The notes beneath the pieces are model-generated. The model was given only the letters and a program-made list of their open reading frames with translations, did no database searches and was not told the origin of the DNA. Positions 15,273-64,000 of a stretch of DNA of 64,000 bases are shown piece after piece. Source of the stretch: Candidatus Omnitrophota bacterium (GTDB lineage Bacteria; Omnitrophota; Gorgyraeia; Zapsychrales; JBDRMG01); NCBI GenBank assembly GCA_043812495.1, contig JBDRMG010000047.1, forward strand, positions 43,771 through 107,770, written 5' to 3'. Each line of letters opens with the position of its first letter. Position 1 is the stretch's first letter. Made by a program: the position numbers and the translations under genes.

Positions 15273-17906
15273 ATGAGTAAATCCAATCAAACGCATAACA
15301 CAGGACTTTCGGGCTTAGATAAAATCTTACAAGGAGTTCGCTTGGGCGACAATGTTGTGATGCAGGTCGACGCCATCGATGATTATGTACGCTTTGTTCA
15401 CCCTTTTGCCAAGGCGGCTCATCATGCTAAGAAAGACCTGATTTATTTTCGGTTTGCCGATCATGAACCGGTGATTCCCGAGGGTATCGCTGTTCATACC
15501 TACGAATTGCATCCCGAGGCGGGATTTGAAAATTTCATTTCAGAAATATTTGATGTCATAGAAAAGCTCGGCAAGGGCGCATTTTATATCTTTGACTGTC
15601 TCTCGGAGCTGGCCGTGGATTGGTACAGCGACCGTATGCTGGGAAATTTCTTTATGCTGACATGTCCTTATCTTTTTGATTATGAGACCGTTGCCTATTT
15701 TGCCCTGAAACGCGATAATCATACGGCGTACGCGATTGAAGCGATTCATGGAACGGCTCAGATCGTTATGGACGTGTACCGCCATAAAGAAGACATGTAT
15801 GTTCATCCGCTTAAAGTTGAAGGCCGCTATACGCCAACCATGTATATGCTTCACCGATGGGACAAAGAAGAATTCGCTCCGGTTACCCGAAGCTCAACGA
15901 CCGCGGAAATTTTGACAGCCGCCCCTCAGCCGTGGCTTGATTTTACAATGCAAAAACGCGATGTCTGGACGCGCAATTTCCTCCAGGCCCAGGAAGTGGT
16001 CAATACCACACGTTCCGATAGCCGCGAGACGTGGAAGAAAAGTAAACTGTTCCAGAGGCTTTTACGTATGGCTGTAACTCGCGATGAGCGCCCGCTTAAG
16101 CTCGCCGAGAAATATTTTGACTTTGCCGATGTCGTCGATATCGGTAAGCGCATGATCGGCACCGGTTTAGTCGGCGGAAAATCCGTCGGTATGCTTTTAG
16201 CCAGAGCCATTCTCAAGAAAGCTGATCCTATCTGGGCACAGAAGCTTGAGCCTCACGATTCCTTTTATATCGGCTCGGATGTCTTCTATACTTATTTGAT
16301 TCAGAACAAATGCTGGTGGATGCGCCGGAAGCTCAACAGCACCTCAGAGAATTTTGATTTGGCGGATGAAGCCTGCGCGCTCATACTCAAAGGCGAATTT
16401 ACAAAAGATATTCAGGATCAATTTCTGGAAATGTTGGATTATTTCGGACAATCACCGATCATTGTCCGTTCGTCCAGTCTTCTGGAAGACGCGTACGGAA
16501 ATTCTTTCTCAGGAAAATACGAAAGTGTTTTCTGCGCCAATCAAGGAACGCCGGAAGAACGTTTTGAGAAATTCGTGGACGCGGTGCGTACGGTCTACGC
16601 CAGCACCATGAGCAAAGAAGCCCTGTCGTATCGGGCGCATTGGGGGCTTTTGGATAGCGACGAACAGATGGCGCTTTTGGTACAACGCGTGTCCGGCACC
16701 GTTCACGAAAGCCAGTTCTTCCCGCAAATTTCCGGCGTCGGGTTTTCTTTTAATCCCTTTGTCTGGAATAGTGAGATCGATCCTAAAGCCGGAATGCTGA
16801 GACTTGTTTTTGGCCTGGGCACCAGGGCCGTGGAGCGCGTCGATGATGATTACACGCGCATCGTGGCGCTCAACGCACCCATGCGGCGGCCCGAGGCAAG
16901 TTCGGAAGATATCCGCAAGTACACCCAGCACAAAATCGATATTCTTGATCTGAAGGCCAATTGCCACACCTCGCGTATGTTTGAGGATGTCATCAAAGAG
17001 GCGCCCGACGTTCCACTGGATATTTTTGCTTCGCGTGATCAAGAGCTTGAGCGCCGTATGCGCGAAATGAAACGCTCCAATGTTTTTTCTTGGATTCTGG
17101 CTTTTGATACCCTGCTTTCCAAGACAGCCTTTGTTGATGATATGCGAACCATGCTGACAATACTCCAGGAATCTTACAATTATCCCGTGGATGTGGAGTT
17201 CACGACCAATTTCCTCGACAAAGACCATTACCGGATTAATCTTGTCCAGTGCCGTCCGTTTCAGGTTAAAGGAAACATCTTAAGCGTTGAAACCCCGCGC
17301 GTGATTAACCGGGAGAAAATTATTCTTGAAACCAAAGGTCCTGTGATCGGAAGCAGCGTCGCCATGACGATTGATCGCATTATTTATGTCTCACCGGAAG
17401 CTTACGGAACAATGAAGGAAGGCGATCGTTATGCCGTGGCCAGGTTGGTCGGCCGGCTGACACACTTAAAAAACAAGGACAAAAAACCGACCATGATGCT
17501 CATTGGTCCCGGTCGTTGGGCCACGTCCACCCCGTCGTTGGGTGTGCCGGTGTCTTTTACGGAAATTAATACAGCTTCGGTTCTTTGCGAAGTCGCAGCC
17601 ATGCACGAAGGGTTGATTCCGGAAGTGTCTTTGGGTACGCACTTTTTCAATGATTTGGTCGAAATGGACATGCTGTATTTTGCTCTTTACCCGCAGAAAT
17701 ACGACAATCTGCTCAACAGCGAGTTTTTCAAGAAATCAAAAAACCAATTAACATCACTGATTCCTGATGCGGCCTCTTTAGCGTCCGTTGTGTACGTCAT
17801 TGATGCGGATGTCTCCAAAGAAGACGAATGCATTTGTCTCAACGCCGATGTTCTCAAGCAGAATGCTGTTTGTTATCTGGGCGAGGGGACGCCGGCGTCC
17901 GAATAA
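15273..17906 (+). CDS. PEP-synthase / pyruvate-phosphate dikinase N-terminal-like (PPDK_N, ATP-grasp) domain protein with a degenerate KaiC/RecA-like N-terminal domain
   Basis: The central region aligns by eye to PpsA PPDK_N (VGGKSVGM; IVRSSSLLEDAYGNSFSGKYESVF, compare VRSSATAEDMPDASFAGQQETF). The N-terminus has a KaiC-like GLSGLDKIL signature but no Walker A. No phospho-His or PEP-utilizing C-terminal domains were recognised. Confidence 0.6.
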   Translation: MSKSNQTHNTGLSGLDKILQGVRLGDNVVMQVDAIDDYVRFVHPFAKAAHHAKKDLIYFRFADHEPVIPEGIAVHTYELHPEAGFENFISEIFDVIEKLGKGAFYIFDCLSELAVDWYSDRMLGNFFMLTCPYLFDYETVAYFALKRDNHTAYAIEAIHGTAQIVMDVYRHKEDMYVHPLKVEGRYTPTMYMLHRWDKEEFAPVTRSSTTAEILTAAPQPWLDFTMQKRDVWTRNFLQAQEVVNTTRSDSRETWKKSKLFQRLLRMAVTRDERPLKLAEKYFDFADVVDIGKRMIGTGLVGGKSVGMLLARAILKKADPIWAQKLEPHDSFYIGSDVFYTYLIQNKCWWMRRKLNSTSENFDLADEACALILKGEFTKDIQDQFLEMLDYFGQSPIIVRSSSLLEDAYGNSFSGKYESVFCANQGTPEERFEKFVDAVRTVYASTMSKEALSYRAHWGLLDSDEQMALLVQRVSGTVHESQFFPQISGVGFSFNPFVWNSEIDPKAGMLRLVFGLGTRAVERVDDDYTRIVALNAPMRRPEASSEDIRKYTQHKIDILDLKANCHTSRMFEDVIKEAPDVPLDIFASRDQELERRMREMKRSNVFSWILAFDTLLSKTAFVDDMRTMLTILQESYNYPVDVEFTTNFLDKDHYRINLVQCRPFQVKGNILSVETPRVINREKIILETKGPVIGSSVAMTIDRIIYVSPEAYGTMKEGDRYAVARLVGRLTHLKNKDKKPTMMLIGPGRWATSTPSLGVPVSFTEINTASVLCEVAAMHEGLIPEVSLGTHFFNDLVEMDMLYFALYPQKYDNLLNSEFFKKSKNQLTSLIPDAASLASVVYVIDADVSKEDECICLNADVLKQNAVCYLGEGTPASE

Positions 17907-27990: not shown

Positions 27991-28044
27991 AAAGAACGAT
28001 TCCCGAATGATTTCATGTTTTGCTTAACCAGAAAAGAAAGAGAT

Positions 28045-28071
28045 GAACCGGTGATAATTTGGCACCGGTTC
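28045..28071. promoter_or_regulatory. Perfect 9 bp inverted repeat GAACCGGTG-N9-CACCGGTTC about 35 bp upstream of dinD-lexA; candidate LexA (SOS) operator
   Basis: The palindrome encloses a GATAAT -10-like hexamer. The downstream genes are dinD and lexA, separated by 38 bp. Confidence 0.45.
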
Positions 28072-28105
28072 AAGACAATGAAACGTTTCTAATCCGAGTA
28101 ACTTT

Positions 28106-28960
28106 ATGACAAGCGAAAATTCAATTCAAAAAGACCATCCATCGACCTTTGAAGCATTGCGGAAAGTCAATCAATATGGCCAGGATTATTGGTCTGCGCG
28201 CGAACTCGCTAAAATTCTGGGTTATTCTGAATTTCGCCACTTTCTTCCGGTTGTTAATAAAGCCAAGGAAGCGTGTCAAAATAGTAATCAAAATATTGCC
28301 GACCATTTCGAGGATGTCCTCGAAATGGTCTCGATAGGTTCTGGGGCACAACGTGAAATACAAGAGATAAGGCTCTCTCGTTATGCCTGTTATTTGATTG
28401 TCCAGAACGCTGACCCGGCCAAACCCATCGTGGCCGTTGGTCAGACATATTTTGCCGTTCAAACAAGAAAACAGGAAATCATTGAACAGGCTGATTATCG
28501 TAAGCTAAAGACAGAAAATGAAAAGCGGCTTTTCCTGCGTAATGAGCTCAAAGTTCATAATAAAAAATTAGCCGGCGTTGCTAAGGATGCCGGAGTTATC
28601 GCACCTCTTGATTATGCGATTTTTCAAGATCATGGCTACAAAGGTTTATACGGTGGATTTACCTCAAAGGATATTCACCGGCGAAAAGGGCTTAAGAAAA
28701 ACCAGCAGATCTTGGACCACATGGGCAGCACTGAGCTGGCGGCCAATCTTTTCCGAGCTACCCAAACCGAAGAAAAATTAAAGAGGGATAATGTTCAAGA
28801 CAAGACTAGGGCCAATGTGGTTCATTATGAGGTTGGCAAGAAAGTCCGGGAAACTATTGGAGCGCTTGGCAGCACCATGCCGGAAAATCTGCCAGTAGTT
28901 AAGAATATTAAGCTTATCCAGGCAAAGAGACGAAAAAGATTAAGAAATACGAAGCCATAA
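28106..28960 (+). CDS. dinD: DNA-damage-inducible protein D
   Basis: The translation aligns by eye to E. coli DinD (…YWSARELAKILGYSEFRHF…GAQREIQEIRLSRYACYLIV…QTYFAVQTRKQEIIEQ). Confidence 0.8.
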   Translation: MTSENSIQKDHPSTFEALRKVNQYGQDYWSARELAKILGYSEFRHFLPVVNKAKEACQNSNQNIADHFEDVLEMVSIGSGAQREIQEIRLSRYACYLIVQNADPAKPIVAVGQTYFAVQTRKQEIIEQADYRKLKTENEKRLFLRNELKVHNKKLAGVAKDAGVIAPLDYAIFQDHGYKGLYGGFTSKDIHRRKGLKKNQQILDHMGSTELAANLFRATQTEEKLKRDNVQDKTRANVVHYEVGKKVRETIGALGSTMPENLPVVKNIKLIQAKRRKRLRNTKP

Positions 28961-28998
28961 ATTCACTTAACAGAACAGGAACCTATCGGAGAAAACCC

Positions 28999-29598
28999 AT
29001 GGAAGAGCGACAGAAGCTTACCCCCAAACAAAAGAAGGTTTTACGGTTTATCTACGAAGAGATTAAGAATAGCCGCTTGCCTCCGACCATTCGCGAAATT
29101 GCCGAACAATTCGGGTTCAGCTCAACCGGCACTGTGCGCGATTATCTTCGGGCCCTTGTTTCCAAAGGCTATATCAAGATTTCCGCTGGGAAATCCAGGG
29201 CGATTGAACTTGTCAAAGAGGCCCTTTTTCAGGTACCTGTGGTCGGCTCTGTTGCGGCCGGGCATCCGACTCTGGCCGTTGAAGATATCGAAGGATACCT
29301 TGATTTGGATTCGCTTGTTTATCCGGAGGATGATTATTTTGCGCTTCGGGTGAAAGGCGACAGCATGATCGACGCCGGAATTTTACCGAATGATTTTGTT
29401 CTCATCAGGCGTCAGCAGGTGGCTGAAGTCGGAGAGATTGTTGTGGCATTGATCGATGATGAAGCGACCGTAAAAACTCTCGCTAAGCGCGGGGACAAAT
29501 TCTTTCTTGAGCCGGCCAATGCGCGCTACAAACCTATCCCTGTGACCCGCGACACCGTTATTATCGGCAAAGTACTTAATATTATCCGCAAGTATTAG
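28999..29598 (+). CDS. lexA: LexA repressor (S24 peptidase)
   Basis: N-terminal winged HTH (LTPKQKKVLRFIYEEI…PTIREIAEQFGFSSTGTVRDYLRAL). Ala-Gly cleavage site (VAAGHP). C-terminal GDSM and Lys catalytic dyad. Confidence 0.85.
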   Translation: MEERQKLTPKQKKVLRFIYEEIKNSRLPPTIREIAEQFGFSSTGTVRDYLRALVSKGYIKISAGKSRAIELVKEALFQVPVVGSVAAGHPTLAVEDIEGYLDLDSLVYPEDDYFALRVKGDSMIDAGILPNDFVLIRRQQVAEVGEIVVALIDDEATVKTLAKRGDKFFLEPANARYKPIPVTRDTVIIGKVLNIIRKY

Positions 29599-55558: not shown

Positions 55559-56746
55559 TTATACGATGCCCGCAATCGTTATGGTTTCATTGAGCAAATG
55601 AGCAGATCCGAAGCGCTCAAGGGACTTGACAGGCGCAATTTCACCGTAGGTGTACATGCCGATGAGCGGAGTATCCGTGCCGAGAATTTCTTTGACCATT
55701 TGAATTTCTTGAATCGCCGAGCGCCGGAGTATTTTATTTCTTGAGAATGACTCGAAAATAATAATGAGTTTCGGCGTTTTGCCCAAAAGGGCGTCTTTGA
55801 CTTCTTGCGCGGCCTCAAGAGCCGCCCGCTTACAGAAGTCTTTGTTGCCAATCATGATGTGAACCTCAGACCCCTGAGGCACGTTACCTTGACATATAAT
55901 ACTCCCATCGGGTCTAACCTCCAAAGCATTTCTTAACAGATACTCACTTTCTCCCTCGATATAAATTCCCAAGGGATGCAGATAAGCCTTTTGAGCGAAT
56001 GAACCGGAGCGTAAATCACTCAGATCCGTTCCAAAAAATTCTTCATAGAGACTAGAGGCTCTTTTTCCGTCAATTTGCTTGATCACCGACCCTTCTGTGC
56101 GGTCGGCGAATCGGGGTTTTCCTAACGGCTTCCAGCCATGCTTACTGCCTATCCCGACGCTTATGTGTCCGCCCATCAAAAGACCCACGGCGGAATCATT
56201 CATCGATTGATCTTGGAAATATTGATAGGTTTCTTGAAAGCGAAAATTATCGCTTGTTCCCGCGCCGATGATAGGAAAGACATTGCCGAGAATTTCTTGG
56301 GCCCCTTTCACAAGAAGTGAGCCGTCTCTCAGTAATCCGTCGCTTAAGAGAAGAAAGATGCTGCGATGGGAAGAACTGAAATCACTCACCGTATTTCTTG
56401 CCAAAGAATTGCCGGCAATATGAAGATCTTGTCCTCGAATGTCTCGGGTATGACCTATGCCGAATTGGACATCTTTCGATGCGAGGGCAAGAACAGCAAT
56501 GCCTTGCGTTTCAATGGATTCAGACAGAAGGATACCGGCCGTCGAACCGCCGATAATTCTGCTTGGATTCAATGTTCTTTGAACAGTATGTAAGGTTTCG
56601 AGAGGGTTATAATGAACGGTTGAGAAAACAATCGCGCAGTCGATATGATCTTGCCTTGACTGAGTCAGGGCCTGGAAGGCGGCCTCTCGCGCGGCCGTAG
56701 AGGTTTGCGTTTCTTGGCTAAAACCTATGCCGATTTCAATGGACAC
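55559..56746 (-). CDS. FIST-domain sensory protein (FIST_N plus FIST_C)
   Basis: About 395 aa. Architecture and composition resemble FIST proteins. Assigned by eye only. Confidence 0.45.
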   Translation of the reverse strand: MSIEIGIGFSQETQTSTAAREAAFQALTQSRQDHIDCAIVFSTVHYNPLETLHTVQRTLNPSRIIGGSTAGILLSESIETQGIAVLALASKDVQFGIGHTRDIRGQDLHIAGNSLARNTVSDFSSSHRSIFLLLSDGLLRDGSLLVKGAQEILGNVFPIIGAGTSDNFRFQETYQYFQDQSMNDSAVGLLMGGHISVGIGSKHGWKPLGKPRFADRTEGSVIKQIDGKRASSLYEEFFGTDLSDLRSGSFAQKAYLHPLGIYIEGESEYLLRNALEVRPDGSIICQGNVPQGSEVHIMIGNKDFCKRAALEAAQEVKDALLGKTPKLIIIFESFSRNKILRRSAIQEIQMVKEILGTDTPLIGMYTYGEIAPVKSLERFGSAHLLNETITIAGIV

Positions 56747-56885: not shown

Positions 56886-56950
56886 GATTACACAGATTTT
56901 AATGGATTACACAGATCAAAACGGATTGTTTTATAATCTGTGTAATCATT
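56886..56950. repeat. GATTACACAGAT / ATCTGTGTAATC element (copy 2) immediately upstream of tRNA-Glu
   Basis: gattacacagat twice plus atctgtgtaatc. Same motif as at 19158-19235. Confidence 0.6.
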
Positions 56951-56953
56951 TGA

Positions 56954-57031
56954 GGCCCCGTCGTCTAGCCTGGTCCAGGACAGATGGTTCTCAGCCATCA
57001 GACGCGGGTTCAAATCCCGCCGGGGCTACCA
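56954..57031 (+). tRNA. tRNA-Glu(CUC): tRNA-Glu (anticodon CUC) with encoded CCA; likely integration site for the downstream island
   Basis: Hand-folded. Acceptor GGCCCCG/CGGGGCU with a G1-U72 wobble pair. D-arm like E. coli tRNA-Glu (UCGUCUAG…AGGAC). Anticodon stem GATGG/CCATC with loop TTCTCAG. T-arm GCGGG-TTCAAAT-CCCGC. Confidence 0.7.
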
Positions 57032-57336
57032 GAAATCTGCCTCTCTTTAGGGTAAGAGAGATTGTTTGGGCCCCGCCATTGTTCCAATGGCGGGGCCCTT
57101 TTAACGCTTTCCCCCTCAAAAGGTTACAACATTCCGTTTATTAGCTCACCAAAGTTATTTAATTACAAAGCACCTGCTTTAAAATCCTCTCTGAAATAAT
57201 CGGCTTTATCTCATAAAATGCCGAAAACATCTCACATATAATGGCTCGTATATAATCAAAAATTTGTTCTTATTTGGAAGATTTTCGACGAGTTTGAGGG
57301 CATTATATAGGAATTTTCAATCAGAGAGGAATTCTA

Positions 57337-58959
57337 TTACTTCTCGGCAGGATTTTTGAAAAGCACTTGCCACATTTCTTTTTGTTTTGCCCAGCTCATT
57401 TGGCGGGAGATTTCATTGATTTTGTATTCGGGGACGGAAAAGAGACTTTCATTTTCGTCTAAAAGGATTTCCTCTTGAATGTCCGGCGCAAGCAAAAGAA
57501 GATTCATGACAACGTAAACTTTGATATTGCTCATGTTCAAACAATTGGCCATTTGCTTCAAATCTTTGACCCGGCCTTCGGATATTACCTTTTGTATCTG
57601 ATGAGCCAGAATTAAGTTTTGCTTTAACTTCGGTTCTTTGTTGATTTTCTCTTGGTTTAAAAATGAAGGCTGATTTTTAAGATCCTTTATATCAACCGGA
57701 AACTCATATTTTCTGATACCTTCTCTCAATGCGATCTCCAAAATCTGTTTTTTCCAATCATAACTTGCCTCTTTAATGATTGACTTTAGGATGGGAATTT
57801 TTTCTTTAAGCGTCAACAATTCCCACGTCTTTGCGTCAAGCTTAGGGAAGGACGCCGTGGCTCTCAAAAGCTCGACGATCTTTTCTTCAATCTTCCTGGC
57901 ATTGACCAGGCGTACAGGGCAGCTTTGATAGCCTCGCTTAATGGCATTTATGCAAAGATAATAGTGATATTTGTATTTGTCTTCTTTGACTTGATACGTA
58001 AAATACATCGCGCAGTTGCAGGATTTGCAGCGTAAGATTCCACTTAACAAGCCCACATGTTTATTTGTCTTGGCCATGCTCCATTCGGGTTTGTTTTTGG
58101 CGAGCATCTCTTGAGCCTTTTGAAAGATTTCCTCGGAAACAATAGCTTCTTGTTCTCCCGGATACAGTATATCCAGATGCTGAACTTTACCCATATAAAG
58201 GACATTCCTGAGAAGGCGTTGGACGCTGGAAATCTTAAAGGTAATACCGCCGAAACTTTTTCCCTTTTTGGATTCGTGCAATTTTGTCAAATACCCCTTC
58301 TCATTAAGAATTTTTGTAACAGCCATGATGGAGCATTTTTCAAGGTATAAGTCAAATATCTCCCGTACGATTTCAGCTTCTTTGGGATTGATGATGAGCT
58401 TGCGTTCTTTCTTATCGACATCATAACCTAAGGGAGGGTGCCCGCCGAGCCACTTACCTTTTCTTTTAGCAGCGCACATCTTGTCACGGGTGCGCTCCGA
58501 GATAATTTCGCGTTCGAATTGGGCGAAGGACAGAAGAATATTAAGTGTAAGCCTTCCCATCGAGTTTTGCGTATTAAAATGCTGAGTTACAGATACAAAA
58601 GTAATATTATTCTCTTCGAATATGGACAACAATTCGGCAAAATCAAGAAGCGAGCGAGAGAGACGGTCAACTTTGTAGACAACGACACAGTTAACCGTTC
58701 CGGCTTTAATGTCAGCCATAAGCTTTTGAAGAGCGGGCCTGTCTGTGTTGGCGCCTGTAAAACCACCGTCGTCATATTTTTCTGGCAGGCAAATCCAACC
58801 GGAATTCTTCTGGCTGGCAATGTAGCTTTCACAGGATTCACGCTGGGCATCCAGCGTAGTAAAGTCACGCTCAAGCCCATCACTGATTGATTTCCGCGTA
58901 TAAATGGCACAGCGGATAATCGGTTTTTCTTGTTGTTCCTCTTTTTGCTTAACGTTCAT
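57337..58959 (-). CDS. Large serine recombinase
   Basis: N-terminal resolvase catalytic domain (AIYTRKS…YKVDRLSRS), a recombinase domain and a Cys-rich zinc ribbon (CKSCNC…C). Confidence 0.85.
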   Translation of the reverse strand: MNVKQKEEQQEKPIIRCAIYTRKSISDGLERDFTTLDAQRESCESYIASQKNSGWICLPEKYDDGGFTGANTDRPALQKLMADIKAGTVNCVVVYKVDRLSRSLLDFAELLSIFEENNITFVSVTQHFNTQNSMGRLTLNILLSFAQFEREIISERTRDKMCAAKRKGKWLGGHPPLGYDVDKKERKLIINPKEAEIVREIFDLYLEKCSIMAVTKILNEKGYLTKLHESKKGKSFGGITFKISSVQRLLRNVLYMGKVQHLDILYPGEQEAIVSEEIFQKAQEMLAKNKPEWSMAKTNKHVGLLSGILRCKSCNCAMYFTYQVKEDKYKYHYYLCINAIKRGYQSCPVRLVNARKIEEKIVELLRATASFPKLDAKTWELLTLKEKIPILKSIIKEASYDWKKQILEIALREGIRKYEFPVDIKDLKNQPSFLNQEKINKEPKLKQNLILAHQIQKVISEGRVKDLKQMANCLNMSNIKVYVVMNLLLLAPDIQEEILLDENESLFSVPEYKINEISRQMSWAKQKEMWQVLFKNPAEK

Positions 58960-58967
58960 AATGATTT

Positions 58968-59486
58968 TTAAAGGTTAAAGAAACAATACCCGTTCCAATG
59001 CGCGCCGGTAATTTCTTTGGCAATGGCCGAGAGATGTTTATAGATTTTTCCGTTATGCTCAAAGCCGTCTTCCAAAACCTTAACCTCTATTTTCTTGCCC
59101 TTATATTCCTTCATGATGATGCTTCCCGGAATAGGGAGGCGGTTGTCCCGCGTGCGCCCTTTTGTTTTCCCGTCAGCTTCAGGGCTTGGCTTTAGCCTTA
59201 AGGCTTTATTATTAACAGGGTCGTAGGCTTTTATAAATTCATTAAGCCTTGTTTGCGCATTTTCTGATAAACTGCCGTATTCAAGCTCTTGAAGGCGGTA
59301 GGCAAGCCTTCGTATCAAAAAGACCTTATTATCTGAAGTGGCTTTCTGGCCGTCAAAAAGCGCCCTATACTCTTTCTGGAGATCAGGAACCGCCATATTT
59401 TCAAAGGCTTTTATTCTTTCTTCAATTATCTCTGTCATCGGATTTTCCCTTACGCATATAGGGCCATACAATTCGAGAGATAGCAA
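58968..59486 (-). CDS. Recombinase-associated small protein (DUF2924-like)
   Basis: About 155-172 aa ORF immediately downstream of, and co-oriented with, the serine recombinase. It resembles proteins usually found next to such recombinases. The start is possibly MTEIIEE at 59438. Confidence 0.45.
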   Translation of the reverse strand: MLSLELYGPICVRENPMTEIIEERIKAFENMAVPDLQKEYRALFDGQKATSDNKVFLIRRLAYRLQELEYGSLSENAQTRLNEFIKAYDPVNNKALRLKPSPEADGKTKGRTRDNRLPIPGSIIMKEYKGKKIEVKVLEDGFEHNGKIYKHLSAIAKEITGAHWNGYCFFNL

Positions 59487-59542
59487 GGGATATTTGAAGC
59501 TTTTGAAGTAAGAATAAAATAATTGACAAGGTGTATGTCTAG

Positions 59543-60184
59543 GTGTATGCTATTGTATGTATGAAAGTAATGACAATGTCAAGTAGAGAATTAGCAGCCA
59601 TTCGCGAAATTCGCAATTCCCTCATGCATAGAGGAAGAGTCCCGTCTATTCGAGAGTTGATGAATTCATTAGGGTATCGATCCCCACGCTCTGCGGCAGT
59701 AATTTATGAGAATTTAATTGAAAAAGGTGTTTTGCGTCGAAAGCGTGACGGTAGTTTTCAATTTGTAAAAGGACTCGAAGACGATACGATTCGAGCACAA
59801 ACTGTCGATGTACCTTTAGTGGGAAGTATTTTTTGCGGCGTTCCGATACTTGCAGAAGAAAATGTCGAAGCTATGATTCCAGTTTCGACTAAATTGGCCA
59901 AGCCATCGAATAAATATTTTTTGTTAAGAGCTAAAGGCGATTCGATGGATCAAAAGGGCATTAACGATGGCGATTTACTTTTAATTCGACAACAGGCAAC
60001 AGCAGAAAATGGTGATATAGTGGTAGCGTTGATTGATGATGAGGCAACGGTGAAGGAGTTTCATGCAAACGGAGAAACGGTCATTTTGAAACCGCACTCG
60101 CGCAACAAGAAACATCAACCGATTGTTTTAACAAGGGATTTTCAGGTACAAGGAGTTATGATAACAGCAATACCGAATGTATAA
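59543..60184 (+). CDS. Second LexA-family (S24 peptidase) repressor, island-encoded
   Basis: LexA-type N-terminal DNA-binding domain (…IRELMNSLGYRSPRSAAVIYENLIEKGVL). C-terminal GDSM…K peptidase domain. The last 60 aa are similar to chromosomal LexA (IVVALIDDEATVK). Confidence 0.75.
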   Translation: MYAIVCMKVMTMSSRELAAIREIRNSLMHRGRVPSIRELMNSLGYRSPRSAAVIYENLIEKGVLRRKRDGSFQFVKGLEDDTIRAQTVDVPLVGSIFCGVPILAEENVEAMIPVSTKLAKPSNKYFLLRAKGDSMDQKGINDGDLLLIRQQATAENGDIVVALIDDEATVKEFHANGETVILKPHSRNKKHQPIVLTRDFQVQGVMITAIPNV

Positions 60185-60265
60185 AAAATAATTTTAACCA
60201 GATTTCAATGTGTAGCATCCCTTTTCAATTTCCCCTCTGCACATTGGTAATGAGAGGAGAAAGAT

Positions 60266-62002
60266 ATGAGTTTAGAAATAACAACAAGCGTTGGGGATGC
60301 TAAACAGAATAATCAATTAATTGAAGGAGAGGCGGTAAAATTGAATTCAGTTTTAGTTGAAACGAGCAATCTGATCGATGATCGTAATCGACGTATAAAA
60401 GATTTTTTTATTGATTCGGTTAAACAAGGTCATTCTTCAGAATCAATTGTCGATCTTTTTGAGCGTTCTTTAGAGAAATTTGAGCGCAAGGATATGGGGC
60501 AGTACTATACTCCCAAGACCATAGTTGAGTACATAATTTCTCAGCTCAACATTCGACAAGATTCAAAAATCTTAGATCCTTCCTGTGGTTGCGGTTCATT
60601 TCTTTTAACTGTTTTTGACAGATTCAAAGAAAAACATGGTACGGAATTCTTGAAAAATATTTATGGGGTTGATATTAACGAAGACGCCGCAAATATGACA
60701 CGTCTTTGTTTGCACATGAAGGCAGGCTTTAATAGAAAATATATTCCTGTAATCAAACAAAACATAAAATCAGGAAACAGCCTAGTTTCAAATTCATTAC
60801 TGAATAAGCAAGCGTTTAATTGGAAGGATGAATATGCGGAAGTTTTGAATGAAGGTGGTTTTGACTTTATTATAGGGAATCCGCCGTATGTAACTTTAAG
60901 AAACTCCAAGGATTTTGATTCTTCGGAATCAATATATAGGCAAATTATCGGTGGGCCGGTCAATGCCGCGACTCTTATGATCGGACGTTCACTCGAATTG
61001 TTAAGGGATCAAGGTGTGCTTGCATTTTTATTGCCGAAATCTATCCTTTATGTCGATTCCTATCAGAAATTGCGTGACTATTTAAGTCACAATACAGATA
61101 TTTTACAGATTTATGATCTAGGCTCAAAATTTAAGGATGTCCGAGGAGAACAATTTATTCTTTTTGTTAAAAAGAAAGCAAATACTATCAATGGTAGTGT
61201 AAAAATTTGTGTGTTTACTGACAGAAACAAGTCGATGACGCAGCAGACGCACATAGACATTTACCACAAAGATCTTGTTCGTATGCCGAGATTTTATACA
61301 TACGAATTACAGAAGCATTATAGCTTAATTTCCAAGCTGGCTGGGATTGGATCAGAGTTGAGGGAAATCGTGAATGATAAAATATTTAGAGGGTTGCCTA
61401 TCGGTGGAAATCGTGCCGAACAGAAAAGTAATACCGGATACGAAAAAGTAATCCGAGGAAGGGATATAGCGAAATTCAGATTAAAGCCTCTGCCATTTAT
61501 GAAGAGAGATCTTCTGGAAAGGCAGAGTAAAATAAAAATAAATGAAATTAGACAAAAGAAGGTAGTCTTACAAAATATTTTTTCATCAGAGGCAGGCGTA
61601 ATAGCGGCTTATGATCCTAATAAATTATTAAACCTTGATACCGTAACAAACATCATTGTTAAGAGTGATGATGAGGGGAAATATTTCCTTGCATTATTAA
61701 ACTCAAAACTAATCAATTTCTATATTATGTATGCGTTATTTAATAGATCAAAATTGACGATGCACCTTGATAAATCTTACATTGGCTCAATCCCGATTAT
61801 TCCCAATCCGAGTCAATCTGTTCTTAGCAGATTAAAAGGGATTGTCGACTTGCTGGATAAAACAGAAGATAAAGGAGTACAGAAGCAAAAAAATAAAGAG
61901 ATTGATAAAATTGTCTATGACCTTTATGATTTAAAGAAACAAGAGATCCAATTAATAGAAGATGCTGTAAATAAGATGCTTTCTCCAAAAAGTCTATGGT
62001 AA
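60266..62002 (+). CDS. Gamma-class N6-adenine DNA methyltransferase (Eco57I/TaqI-like) with C-terminal target-recognition domain
   Basis: Motif I ILDPSCGCGSFLL. Motif IV IIGNPPYV. About 250 aa C-terminal extension. Confidence 0.8.
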   Translation: MSLEITTSVGDAKQNNQLIEGEAVKLNSVLVETSNLIDDRNRRIKDFFIDSVKQGHSSESIVDLFERSLEKFERKDMGQYYTPKTIVEYIISQLNIRQDSKILDPSCGCGSFLLTVFDRFKEKHGTEFLKNIYGVDINEDAANMTRLCLHMKAGFNRKYIPVIKQNIKSGNSLVSNSLLNKQAFNWKDEYAEVLNEGGFDFIIGNPPYVTLRNSKDFDSSESIYRQIIGGPVNAATLMIGRSLELLRDQGVLAFLLPKSILYVDSYQKLRDYLSHNTDILQIYDLGSKFKDVRGEQFILFVKKKANTINGSVKICVFTDRNKSMTQQTHIDIYHKDLVRMPRFYTYELQKHYSLISKLAGIGSELREIVNDKIFRGLPIGGNRAEQKSNTGYEKVIRGRDIAKFRLKPLPFMKRDLLERQSKIKINEIRQKKVVLQNIFSSEAGVIAAYDPNKLLNLDTVTNIIVKSDDEGKYFLALLNSKLINFYIMYALFNRSKLTMHLDKSYIGSIPIIPNPSQSVLSRLKGIVDLLDKTEDKGVQKQKNKEIDKIVYDLYDLKKQEIQLIEDAVNKMLSPKSLW

Positions 62003-62796
62003 TAAAAAGTTCGACAAGATACAACGAGTTAACAGGTAAAGAATGGCTTCAATATTCCTTCAGCATTTGGCGGGATATTCGCAAAAGCGATGATGAAAGG
62101 AATATTAAGCATCCCGCCATGTTTCCTTCCGCACTTGCCGAGAAAGTTATCAAGACTTATACTCGTGAGAACGATGCCGTGTTGGATCCGTTTATGGGTA
62201 TTGGCAGTACCATTATTGCCGCATACAAACAGAATCGAAAGGCAATCGGCATAGATTTATCAAAGGAGTTTATAAGCTTAGCAAACCGACGCTTGAAAGA
62301 GCTGAAGGGAGCTTTAAATAATAAAAAAATAAAAGTCATTAATGCAGATGCTCGGCACTTGAAAGAACATTTGAAGGATCAAGAAATTGATCTTTGCGTT
62401 ACTTCTCCGCCTTATTGGGATATTCTCAATATGCGAAGAACGGCTGATGGAAAAACAATAAAGAACTATGGTAAGGATAAAACCGATTTAGGAAATATCG
62501 ATAATTATGAACAATTTTTGTCTGAATTAATTCAAATCTTTTCAGGCGTATATGATGTTTTGAAGACCGGTGGCCATTGCGTGGTTGTGGTTATGGATAT
62601 CAGAAAAAAGGATAAATTTTATCCGCTTCATTCTGATCTAGCCGAAAAAATGAAAAGCATTGGCTTCACCTTTGAAGATATAATCATCTGGGACAGACAA
62701 CATGAATATAACAATATGAAACCATTGGGCTGGCCCTCGGTGTTCCGGGTCAACAAAGTCCATGAATATGTTTTAATTTTTAGGAAACGTAAATAA
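61996..62796 (+). CDS. Beta-class DNA methyltransferase (N4-cytosine or N6-adenine; the SPPY motif favours N4C)
   Basis: VTSPPYWD motif, then AdoMet motif FMGIGST, in the permuted beta-class order. Confidence 0.7.
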   Translation: MVIKSSTRYNELTGKEWLQYSFSIWRDIRKSDDERNIKHPAMFPSALAEKVIKTYTRENDAVLDPFMGIGSTIIAAYKQNRKAIGIDLSKEFISLANRRLKELKGALNNKKIKVINADARHLKEHLKDQEIDLCVTSPPYWDILNMRRTADGKTIKNYGKDKTDLGNIDNYEQFLSELIQIFSGVYDVLKTGGHCVVVVMDIRKKDKFYPLHSDLAEKMKSIGFTFEDIIIWDRQHEYNNMKPLGWPSVFRVNKVHEYVLIFRKRK

Positions 62797-63752
62797 TGAA
62801 TAATCCAGAATTGGCATATCTTTTAGGCATGCTTGCAGGAAAGGGTTTCATTAAGAGAGGAGAATCAACAACTGACATCTTAATTGAAATTCCTCACAAA
62901 AATTTAATTGTAGAGGATAAAGATGCGCAGCTTTCCGTCAAGGCGAGCTTAGATGACTTCCGAAACAACATCGAACCTTTAATTAGCGTTTCCGTTAGAA
63001 CTATCCAAGAGCGTATAAGGACAATCATCAAATTTTCTAAGCTCAACGAAGATTTTTTGATAAGGGAAATTAATCGTCATTATAGGAATAAAAGCGAGTG
63101 GAAAGATTTTAGAATTCCTAAGGATATTTTCTCAGCATCTTCAGATATAAAAAAAGAATTTTTGATTGGGCTATCCGATGTCACAGCCCATATTGGTCAT
63201 GGGGGCGAGGCATATGGTTACTCTCATGCTCACAGAGTGTTTGTGGAAATACCAGTGAATTGGTACTTGGCCGTTGATATCTGTAATTTATTGGCTGATT
63301 TGGATATTCCTGTTCAGAATATTGATTGGGGTCATCCAAATATGAGGGATGGCAATCTAAAAAAATATAGAGAGGGCAAAAAGAATTTTTGGAACAAGGA
63401 ACACCAGATTAAGATTTTTGCTGAGCTTTATGAAAAGATTGGATTCAGAATTATCCATAAAATGGAAATCTTAAAGAAGTTGGCTGATAAAAACCGTAGC
63501 GAATGGGATAAAGATCGAAGAAAAAAGGCGTCACGCGCTAAAAATGAGAAGACTAAAGAAAAATTCCTTTCGCAAGTTGGAAAGGTTGAAGAACAGCATA
63601 AGAAGTTCTATTGGGATGTTAAGAGGCTTGTAAGGAAGTCCAGGTCAGCTCATCCGATGGAAAAGAGTGAGTTGCTGCCTCCGGAAATCAGAGGAAAACA
63701 TTTTAATCATTGGACCGAGATTGCAGAAATCTTAGGTTATAAACCACGATAG
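62796..63752 (+). CDS. Hypothetical protein with an N-terminal LAGLIDADG-like motif lacking the catalytic acidic residues
   Basis: LAYLLGMLAGKGF near the N-terminus and a weaker second copy, FLIGLSDVTAHIG. Asp is replaced by Ala/Lys. Follows the two methyltransferases in the same operon. Confidence 0.4.
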   Translation: MNNPELAYLLGMLAGKGFIKRGESTTDILIEIPHKNLIVEDKDAQLSVKASLDDFRNNIEPLISVSVRTIQERIRTIIKFSKLNEDFLIREINRHYRNKSEWKDFRIPKDIFSASSDIKKEFLIGLSDVTAHIGHGGEAYGYSHAHRVFVEIPVNWYLAVDICNLLADLDIPVQNIDWGHPNMRDGNLKKYREGKKNFWNKEHQIKIFAELYEKIGFRIIHKMEILKKLADKNRSEWDKDRRKKASRAKNEKTKEKFLSQVGKVEEQHKKFYWDVKRLVRKSRSAHPMEKSELLPPEIRGKHFNHWTEIAEILGYKPR

Positions 63753-63755
63753 GCA

Positions 63756-64000
63756 TGAGCAAGCAGGAAGAAAAATTATATCCGGATATCGAAGAATGGT
63801 TAAAAGTATATTTAACTGAGAAATATTCGACCAATAAAATTATTACGACTCGCAAGACTTCTAGGCAGAATTTAGATGTTTGCCTTAAGAGCCTTGGAAT
63901 CGAGATCAAAGAAGCCATTGGATTATCGATTAAGGTTGACATCGTTGGTATCCTTGTGCGAGGGCAAAAAGTCAGATTGGTTTTTGTTGAGGTAAAAGAT
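63756..64000 (+). CDS. Partial CDS (runs off the window) with a PD-(D/E)xK-like nuclease motif; candidate restriction endonuclease
   Basis: The translation MSKQEEKLYPDIEEW…KVDIVGILVRGQKVRLVFVEVKD contains D…EVK spacing typical of PD-(D/E)xK. Not in the ORF track because it is truncated. Confidence 0.4.

Follow-up and report, generated by a model that had tools for sequence, protein, structure and literature searches.

A LexA paralogue preceding a probable restriction-modification cassette in an Omnitrophota island, and its relatives ahead of anti-phage systems in several phyla

The DNA considered here is a stretch of 64,000 nucleotides (the window) from a Candidatus Omnitrophota bacterium (assembly GCA_043812495.1, contig JBDRMG010000047.1, positions 43,771 to 107,770 of the forward strand), and all window coordinates are counted from its first letter. 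The evidence supports the presence, directly 3' of a tRNA-Glu gene, of a foreign integrative island of at least 6.7 kb that consists of two divergent units and continues beyond position 64000. The minus-strand unit encodes a large serine recombinase (integrase) and a DUF2924 protein, whereas the plus-strand unit starts with a gene for a LexA-type repressor, here called LexA2, followed by the genes of a probable restriction-modification (R-M) system. Both features expected of an island, an integrase adjoining a tRNA gene and a deviating base composition, are present: the integrase stop codon lies 305 bp from tRNA-Glu, and the GC content is 0.382 for 57032-64000 versus 0.452 for the remainder of the window (the lowest value of any other 7-kb segment being 0.414). 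An initial annotation, made from the sequence alone, had described an AT-rich block with a serine integrase at this tRNA, and all of the features that it listed were found in their places; low GC content, a phage-type integrase with a DUF2924 partner, and cargo that runs past the window end bear the island out.

LexA2 is a protein of 207 amino acids (59561..60184, plus strand) composed of an N-terminal winged-helix LexA DNA-binding domain (LexA_DNA_bind, PF01726, 32.4 bits) and a C-terminal S24 peptidase domain (Peptidase_S24, PF00717, 102 bits). On the lexA equivalog family TIGR00498 it scores 160.8 bits against a cutoff of 110.95, and it matches NCBI protein MFH1360695.1 at 100%. The start codon is most likely the ATG at 59561, which is preferred over the GTG at 59543 because it agrees with the deposited protein. 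In particular, LexA2 carries Cys92-Gly93 at the cleavage position as well as the catalytic residues Ser128 and Lys165. In the clade to which it belongs (see below), the cysteine is conserved in 76 of 78 members and the glycine, serine and lysine in all 78. The scissile Cys-Gly differs from the canonical Ala-Gly of LexA; UmuD is likewise cleaved at Cys-Gly, and thus cleavage of LexA2 is plausible although the canonical residue is absent.

LexA2 is not the sole LexA of the cell, a possibility ruled out by lexA1 (28999-29598), which was identified by tblastn of the window 38 bp after dinD (28106-28960). This dinD-lexA1 pair (28106..29598, plus strand; NF008573 DinD 407 bits, TIGR00498 204 bits) lies outside the island and serves as a comparator. 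LexA1 has the Ala-Gly site, is 41% identical to Escherichia coli LexA and is encoded at a GC content of 0.49; the corresponding values for LexA2 are 35% and 0.405, and the two proteins share 37.6% identity. LexA1 is plausibly the SOS repressor with the housekeeping role, and LexA2 is an additional copy carried by foreign DNA; the second LexA paralogue proposed initially is confirmed within the same 64 kb. Ahead of the dinD-lexA1 pair lies a 10-bp inverted repeat without mismatches, TGAACCGGTG-N9-CACCGGTTCA (28044-28072), which contains GAAC...GTTC half-sites and might be a LexA1 operator or a terminator.

The LexA2 promoter and predicted operator occupy 59523..59559 on the plus strand. The promoter consists of TTGACA (59523-59528), a 17-nt spacer and TATGCT (59546-59551), scores 10/12 in a promoter scan, and is among the best matches of the region. 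Three direct TGTATG repeats (59532, 59544 and 59554) overlap the spacer, the -10 element and the start region. As the ATG lies 9 nt past the -10 element and lacks a Shine-Dalgarno sequence, LexA2 mRNA is probably leaderless or nearly so. The TGTATG repeat pattern occurs only once in 64 kb (0.18 occurrences expected by chance). The same promoter-operator architecture is found in LexA2 relatives: in 105 of 137 loci the motif TGTAT-N5-7-TGTAT is found no more than 100 nt 5' of LexA2, compared with 0.0013 expected per such interval, and the 1.58 Mb of DNA examined around the loci contain 20 further matches. This restriction of the operator to the LexA2 promoter in 64 kb, its near absence from 1.58 Mb, and the existence of a separate LexA1 point to LexA2 as a local rather than a genome-wide regulator. 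Moreover, a promoter-like site on the minus strand (59576..59547) shares its -10 region with the LexA2 promoter, and hence the same operators could also control the DUF2924-integrase unit. In the scan of the region, no terminator-like site was seen between LexA2 and the first methyltransferase gene.

The 81-bp spacer between LexA2 and its cargo contains a conserved element (about 60203..60247, plus strand), an 11-bp inverted repeat of the form TCAATGTGTAG-(21 nt, C-rich loop)-CTGCACATTGG. The element is present in 14 loci (10 distinct sequences), 23-44 nt past the end of the LexA2 protein match; in addition to the window, these include L005, L006, L007, L010, L038, L090, L092, L094 and L100. 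It stands ahead of differing cargo or methyltransferase genes, and it is a part of the regulator module, not of the cargo. The element has no T-run, and 60203-60247 has no match in Rfam. Its folding energy is no better than that of shuffled sequences (z-score 0.11), covariation was not detected among the 10 sequences, and no second copy, as might mark a cassette recombination site, was found at the far end of the cargo. The element could be an mRNA stabilizer or processing site, or a protein-binding site; it could also exert translational control via its UUUCCCCUCU stretch, which is complementary to the downstream Shine-Dalgarno region.

The first two cargo genes encode DNA methyltransferases. 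The first (60266..62002, plus strand; 578 amino acids) is a gamma-class N6-adenine enzyme (Eco57I 99, N6_Mtase 98.2 and TaqI_C 46.9 bits; PADLOC MTase_II 138.5) with motif I DPSCGCGSF, motif IV NPPY and a TaqI_C specificity domain, and it is 77% identical to its orthologue in locus L038. The second (61996..62796, plus strand; 266 amino acids) belongs to the N6_N4_Mtase family (PF01555, 139.5 bits; PADLOC MTase_II 173.7), has the catalytic motif SPPY, and is 85% identical to its L038 orthologue. Its motif I (DPFMGIGST) lies N-terminal to SPPY, and the PF01555 match consists of two permuted stretches, residues 16-97 aligning to model positions 135-220. Accordingly, of the two initial class assignments the gamma one stands, whereas the beta one for the SPPY enzyme does not, since motif I before motif IV is not the classical beta order. 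Both enzymes have intact S-adenosylmethionine-binding and catalytic motifs, which makes an R-M system likely; the cargo within the window is likely to be a type II-like R-M cassette with two methylases.

The third cargo gene (62796..63752, plus strand), an open reading frame of unknown role in the initial annotation, is indeed present and encodes a protein of 318 amino acids that matches no sequence in Pfam, NCBIfam, PADLOC, PHROG or the Protein Data Bank (PDB). It has 814 homologues in bacteria and archaea (some annotated archaeal), a family for which there is no Pfam model. The AlphaFold model (mean predicted local distance difference test score, pLDDT, 90.3) shows a double LAGLIDADG fold: Foldseek returned 32 PDB matches at E ≤1e-3, all of them LAGLIDADG proteins, including bI3 maturase, PI-PfuI, PI-SceI and I-DmoI (E 1e-6 to 1e-3). 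With helix ends taken from the model, the canonical catalytic-acid positions are occupied by Lys16 and Thr130, each at least 90% conserved in the homologues. Because the catalytic acids are missing, an active LAGLIDADG nuclease is ruled out, and the protein is probably catalytically inactive. It is proposed to be the DNA-recognition subunit of a restriction enzyme.

The fourth gene (63755..64000, plus strand) is cut by the window end after 82 codons of a PD-(D/E)xK-like protein of about 160 amino acids; the visible part contains D62 and E79-x-K81. Full-length 160-residue orthologues are found in L038, L084 and L086, each directly after the 318-residue gene, and D62, E79 and K81 are invariant. 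A search for homologues of the truncated nuclease gave only two, on contigs of no more than 583 and 1,731 bp, and the structure model is therefore weak (pLDDT 64.6); its predicted topology fits a PD-(D/E)xK core, and its Foldseek matches are weak and all to PD-(D/E)xK nucleases, the best being Hjc, a splicing endonuclease and BamHI at E values of 7e-3 to 3e-2. Neither Pfam nor PHROGs contains a match, and two PDB sequence matches are non-significant (E 0.026 and 0.46). Thus, of the nuclease initially described as leaving the window, the D...ExK motif and the truncation are verified, and the nuclease assignment, which depends on a weak model, is consistent with the data. The 160-residue protein is proposed to be the catalytic subunit, which would imply a division of labour between it and the 318-residue protein.

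The complete cassette (methyltransferase, 265-residue SPPY methyltransferase, 318-residue and 160-residue proteins) recurs in L038 and L084-L087, and in every locus examined the last two genes stand together 3' of two methyltransferase genes. The same cassette occurs without LexA2 in L084 and in the Omnitrophota metagenome-assembled genome (MAG) GCA_028716565.1, which indicates that regulator and cargo are separable modules. LexA-less cassettes have an extra gene of 142-143 codons between the SPPY methyltransferase and 318-residue genes (L084 7564-7992; L086 7570-8001); it is missing from the LexA2-led versions (the window and L038), and the 142-residue product has no Pfam match.

LexA2 belongs to a distinct clade present in several phyla, and is a paralogue of the SOS repressor that appears to have spread horizontally. 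Scans of GTDB genomes and JGI metagenomes yielded 160 loci, or 142 after the window had been added and identical copies removed. Clade members are 49-88% identical among themselves and 31-38% identical to LexA1 or E. coli LexA, and their record titles name Omnitrophota, Nitrospirota, Bacteroidota and Patescibacteria. Seven distant members were tested; six contain both the LexA_DNA_bind and S24 domains, and the seventh scored on S24 alone. Downstream genes were classified in those non-identical loci, 105 in number, where the sequence continues for 1.5 kb or more past LexA2. A co-directional gene follows within 300 bp in 95 of them, with a median gap of 18 bp, gaps of at most 30 bp in 62 loci, and a 4-bp overlap in several. 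The most frequent cargo is a cyclic oligonucleotide-based anti-phage signalling system (CBASS; 35 loci), in which a cGAS/DncV-like nucleotidyltransferase (CD-NTase) is accompanied by patatin, Cap2/Cap3, SAVED or Cap15. DNA methyltransferases or R-M systems with TdeIII, DpnII, EcoRV, HNH or Mrr partners follow LexA2 in 30 loci (L002 being counted under both headings), other conflict systems (ResIII helicase, caspase-helicase, OLD-like ATPase, PIN pair, SAVED) in 6, and the error-prone Y-family polymerase plus DnaE2 in 5. The initial annotation had claimed that a cleavage-competent second LexA heads an R-M operon. This agrees with the retention of the glycine, serine and lysine, the separate promoter, the lack of a terminator-like site before the first methyltransferase gene, and the position of the clade ahead of conflict systems in dozens of loci.

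A LexA with 66% or more identity to the window copy is found in 18 loci, of which 16 have methyltransferase or R-M cargo and 3 have CBASS. Identities of regulator and cargo are discordant: L038 and the window share 77-90% identity in their cargo proteins and only 72% in LexA2, whereas loci with LexA2 proteins 80-81% identical carry unrelated cargo, which implies that regulator and cargo have been shuffled. Omnitrophota MAG GCA_016931055.1 has two LexA2 copies, one of which (L004) leads Mrr_cat and a methyltransferase and the other (L038) the cassette seen in the window. These paralogues are 73% identical to each other, and their operator variants differ slightly (TGTATAC..ATGTATG versus TGTATAA..TGTATAC), a difference that may insulate the two circuits. 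A small DUF2188 protein (PF09954, about 80 amino acids) is encoded directly after LexA2 in approximately 20 loci (L020, L023, L033, L040, L045, L046, L053, L058, L063, L066, L067, L071, L072, L075, L076, L082, L117, L130, L134 and L142). Its gene precedes varied cargo, such as genes for ResIII helicase, caspase-helicase, SAVED and metallo-beta-lactamase fold proteins, and DUF2188 may be a second regulatory component of the LexA2 module.

No two loci have the same flank upstream of LexA2, whereas the gene, its promoter and the position of the cargo travel together. In L002, direct repeats of the comM 3' end, 300 nt long, enclose a LexA2-R-M-CBASS module, and in L005 the repeats on either side of the module measure 126 and 96 nt and have their left copies at a C-terminal fragment of comM. 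These repeats are a signature of site-specific insertion at comM. In both loci (L002 1954-17063, L005 9245-14327), successive remnants of the comM C-terminus separate blocks of accessory genes, an arrangement that suggests tandem accretion of small islands at the comM 3' end, one of them being the LexA2-R-M-CBASS module; no integrase was seen within these 5-6-kb units. In L013, a 3.7-Mb Bacteroidia chromosome, an open reading frame for a 534-residue serine recombinase (16274-17878) overlaps tRNA-Leu(GAG) (17786-17867, opposite strand) and adjoins a LexA2-CBASS module (CD-NTase, Cap15); a possible type I R-M system is present on the other side of the recombinase. Most clade members have no recombinase within 8-10 kb. 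By tblastn, the window integrase gave weak matches in 6 of 83 LexA2 loci and DUF2924 none, and these two genes are therefore ruled out as invariable companions of LexA2. IMG/VR yielded no member of the clade, and all matches among INPHARED phages and PLSDB plasmids are at most 39.6% identical, that is, ordinary LexA. The picture is one of chromosomal islands that appear to share a LexA2-led module, with the island in the window using a serine integrase at tRNA-Glu.

These observations can be combined into a model of local, damage-responsive control, to which we assign moderate confidence: LexA2 would repress its own operon, and RecA-stimulated self-cleavage would raise expression of the cargo. 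According to this model, LexA2 dimers would bind the three TGTATG repeats over the -10 element and the start of their own leaderless promoter and throttle transcription of the whole operon, and probably also that from the face-to-face DUF2924-integrase promoter. Negative autoregulation would hold methylation and restriction low and steady. Upon DNA damage or phage replication, RecA filaments formed on single-stranded DNA would induce self-cleavage of LexA2 at Cys92-Gly93 via Ser128 and Lys165; the promoter would then be freed and the immune cargo boosted, possibly together with excision of the island. DNA binding by LexA2, its RecA-stimulated cleavage, co-transcription with the cargo, and induction are all inferred here from sequence.

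Several points weigh against this model. Its regulatory steps are all predicted from sequence, and the TGTATG repeats are a putative LexA2 operator, assigned by their conservation. Direct-repeat operators are, moreover, unusual for LexA; alphaproteobacterial LexA uses the direct repeat GTTC-N7-GTTC. The hairpin in the spacer could lower read-through into the cargo, and the gaps of 130-300 bp in some loci leave room for internal promoters. Not all of the 105 loci have a recognizable target: DUF2188 alone follows LexA2 in 9 (cargo not classified), the cargo is unclassified in 11, and 10 have no co-directional neighbour. The survey that yielded these loci was seeded with six 8-residue query peptides and is neither exhaustive nor unbiased. 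More restriction enzyme during DNA damage could also be harmful to the cell. Finally, a survey of expression in other bacteria, based on public RNA-sequencing data for 14 species plus 15 E. coli strains, reports a negative correlation between the expression of defence systems and that of recA (bioRxiv 10.64898/2025.12.14.694197).

The alternative that survives best, although it seems unlikely, is that LexA2 mainly maintains the island, as do repressors such as lambda CI, SetR of SXT and ImmR of ICEBs1. Its target would then be the DUF2924-integrase unit, damage would lead to excision or transfer, and the R-M genes would be passengers co-transcribed with the repressor, like rexAB with cI in lambda. 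This explanation overlaps with damage-responsive control of the cargo, from which it differs in the output that matters. It accounts well for the divergent layout with a minus-strand promoter-like site sharing the LexA2 -10 region, for an integrase and a DUF2924 protein of phage type, for the location of LexA2 modules within islands, and for the apparently leaderless start, lambda cI transcribed from P_RM being leaderless as well. It is difficult to reconcile with the rarity of recombinases near other clade members (weak integrase matches in a few loci, DUF2924 in none) and with the absence of the clade from the viral, phage and plasmid collections searched. Moreover, the conserved neighbour of LexA2 is the downstream cargo position and not an integration unit.

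It is quite improbable that LexA2 controls its cargo independently of RecA, in the manner of R-M controller (C) proteins, buffering expression and timing establishment in a new host, with self-cleavage either vestigial or answering another signal. Operators placed over the -10 element and the start do suit pure negative autoregulation, and the dosage of toxic cargo, restriction enzymes and CBASS effectors among it, has to be tightly controlled. There is also a precedent in IrvR of Streptococcus mutans, a LexA-like regulator reported to be independent of RecA (PMC7101444). However, conservation of the cleavage residues across four phyla (Gly, Ser and Lys in 78/78, Cys in 76/78) is hard to explain unless self-cleavage is under selection, and five members lead Y-family polymerase and DnaE2, a classic DNA-damage cargo. 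As for a merely incidental adjacency, in which the site after LexA would be a hotspot for defence genes with promoters of their own and no regulatory link, the gathering of defence genes in hotspots, the hairpin-containing 81-bp spacer of the window and several promoter-like matches within the operon speak for it, yet it is very improbable given that LexA2, promoter and cargo position move together between varying flanks, that gaps are typically 2-30 bp or a 4-bp overlap, that LexA1 of the same genome has no R-M or defence neighbours such as those of LexA2, and that the two LexA2 copies of a single MAG are each accompanied by a separate R-M system.

Damage-responsive control by LexA2 resembles several known arrangements. 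The lexA2-imuA-imuB-dnaE2 mutagenesis cassette, reportedly found in Pseudomonas putida and many other bacteria, is likewise a horizontally dispersed operon that opens with the gene for a second LexA, a protein with its own operator that represses the cassette (as is predicted here), and five loci of the LexA2 clade contain a Y-family polymerase and DnaE2. In contrast to that cassette, the clade has mostly immune cargo (R-M, CBASS, helicase-nuclease and a toxin-antitoxin (TA) pair), and LexA2 has a TGTAT direct-repeat operator, a Cys-Gly site and an apparently leaderless transcript; the window locus has LexA2 in first position, but its cargo is R-M, so it is not an imu cassette. In the lambda cI-rexA-rexB operon, a self-cleaving S24 repressor is encoded first on a leaderless transcript of an integrated element and is followed by a phage-exclusion system. 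However, CI has an HTH_3-type domain and activates P_RM, and its cleavage lowers rexAB, whereas LexA2 has a LexA winged helix and operators over the -10 element, and its cleavage should raise the cargo; no prophage genes were seen at the window island.

The 318-residue protein of the proposed restriction enzyme shares the double alpha-beta-beta-alpha-beta-beta-alpha fold of LAGLIDADG homing endonucleases, maturases and WhiA (PDB 2ab5, 1dq3, 2vs8 and 3hyj), but it has Lys16 and Thr130 in place of the catalytic Asp/Glu of both motifs and is a fixed partner of two methyltransferases and the 160-residue PD-(D/E)xK-like protein. To our knowledge, no R-M enzyme with a LAGLIDADG fold has been described.

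Among dedicated immune regulators, CapH/CapP is similar in function. Its repressor, located at an immune operon, is removed by proteolysis upon DNA damage or in response to single-stranded DNA, and immune expression rises (bioRxiv 10.1101/2022.04.27.489752; 10.64898/2026.05.16.725639). Like LexA2, CapH is associated with many different defence systems. However, CapH/CapP, which is related to DdrO/IrrE, comprises a helix-turn-helix (HTH) repressor and a separate zinc metallopeptidase, whereas LexA2 is a single self-cleaving S24 protein that is expected to depend on RecA filaments. No metallopeptidase gene is located nearby, and PADLOC-DB has no model that matches LexA2. The analogy with CapH/CapP drawn in the initial annotation consequently applies at the level of function, not of kinship, the proteins being unrelated. 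The WYL-domain transcription factors CapW and BrxR repress diverse defence systems and islands with which they co-localize (PMC9122588, PMC9122601, PMC9122589); this co-localization is shared by LexA2, from which they differ in fold, in sensing ligands instead of undergoing proteolysis, and in their operators. The C proteins of R-M systems, reviewed in PMC3874152, are HTH activator-repressors of 80-100 amino acids encoded before the restriction gene and lacking a protease domain; this review of R-M regulation mentions LexA solely for TA systems and not for R-M control. The likeness to LexA2 is that an autoregulatory DNA-binding protein encoded in the R-M gene complex sets expression. In the full-text literature searched, which leaves most subscription journals outside its coverage, no description of LexA-led R-M or CBASS operons was found. 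A study of the SOS response of Bacteroidetes reported no canonical LexA in Bacteroidota (PMC8565304), and canonical-type LexA2 genes precede CBASS in this phylum; there, they look like accessory, defence-linked genes.

Considered together, LexA2 proteins leading varied anti-phage systems in at least four phyla point to a previously undescribed coupling of immunity to DNA damage. More tentatively, and at rather less than even chances, we propose that LexA2 marks an unrecognized portable cassette. The cassette would comprise a sigma-70 promoter, operators made of TGTAT direct repeats, and a leaderless gene for a LexA that cleaves itself at Cys-Gly (with the spacer hairpin in the Omnitrophota branch). 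In four phyla or more, it would have been placed horizontally before error-prone polymerases as well as before unrelated immune systems (R-M, several CBASS types, helicase-nucleases and TA pairs). The same tentative proposal includes a dead LAGLIDADG-fold recognition subunit for a small PD-(D/E)xK nuclease. How the expression of costly or self-toxic immune systems is timed is an open question, for which no more than a handful of dedicated regulators have been described (CapH/CapP, the WYL proteins and C proteins). If this tentative proposal is true, RecA-sensed DNA damage would be a direct transcriptional trigger of immunity, and LexA2 would join CapH/CapP and the WYL proteins as the third class of immune regulators that sense damage; a LexA paralogue heading R-M and CBASS operons would tie immunity to the RecA filament, the best understood bacterial damage sensor. 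The restriction architecture would, if true, be new among restriction systems, and the widespread, unannotated R-M cassette with a LAGLIDADG-fold component that the window reveals could give a new kind of restriction enzyme. The LexA2 module is carried by cultured Flavobacteriia; cultured bacteria with a LexA2-CBASS locus include Arenibacter echinorum DSM 23522 (L057), Winogradskyella damuponensis JCM 17633 (L049) and Pseudochryseolinea flava SDU1-6 (L042).

The minus-strand unit of the island agrees with its initial description as a large serine recombinase with a DUF2924 partner, as Pfam and PHROG matches attest. The integrase (57337..58959, minus strand; 540 amino acids) has all three Pfam domains of large serine recombinases above threshold in one protein (Resolvase 123.5, Recombinase 60.9 and Zn_ribbon_recom 45.5 bits). 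It scores 381 bits on phrog_95, a family of phage integrases, and stays below the cutoffs of the XisF and Ccr equivalogs. The DUF2924 protein (58968..59438, minus strand; 156 amino acids; PF11149 132 bits, phrog_11806 129.6 bits) is encoded upstream of the integrase and in the same direction, most likely from an ATG at 59438. A 17-nt inverted repeat with 94% complementarity (59409-59425 / 59503-59519) flanks this start codon and the intergenic region, and it could enclose the ribosome-binding site on the minus-strand mRNA.

A repeat of the tRNA-Glu 3' end at the distal island boundary had been suggested as the sign of integration at this gene; the repeat search found none in 57032-64000, past which the island extends. 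Large serine integrases of the phiC31 and Bxb1 type carry out strand exchange at a core of 2 bp, so that their insertions are not bordered by long direct repeats, and this test is therefore ill-suited to the island. A metagenome scan for the empty site, in which the NosP-like neighbour (55559-56746) was used, gave no relative. The tRNA-Glu gene itself (anticodon CTC; 56954..57031, plus strand; ARAGORN, Rfam tRNA 57.7 bits) is a host gene that forms the left flank. Downstream of it lie a GC-rich inverted repeat of 14 bp (57068..57098, plus strand; 100% complementary) and TTTTAA, probably the tRNA terminator, which would place the left boundary of the island between 57099 and 57336. Upstream of tRNA-Glu, GATTACACAGAT is found in two tandem direct copies (56886 and 56905) and an inverted copy (56931-56948). 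These copies (56886-56948) give rise to inverted repeats of 17-18 nt that flank a promoter-like site (56908-56937), and they may be an operator for transcription of the tRNA.

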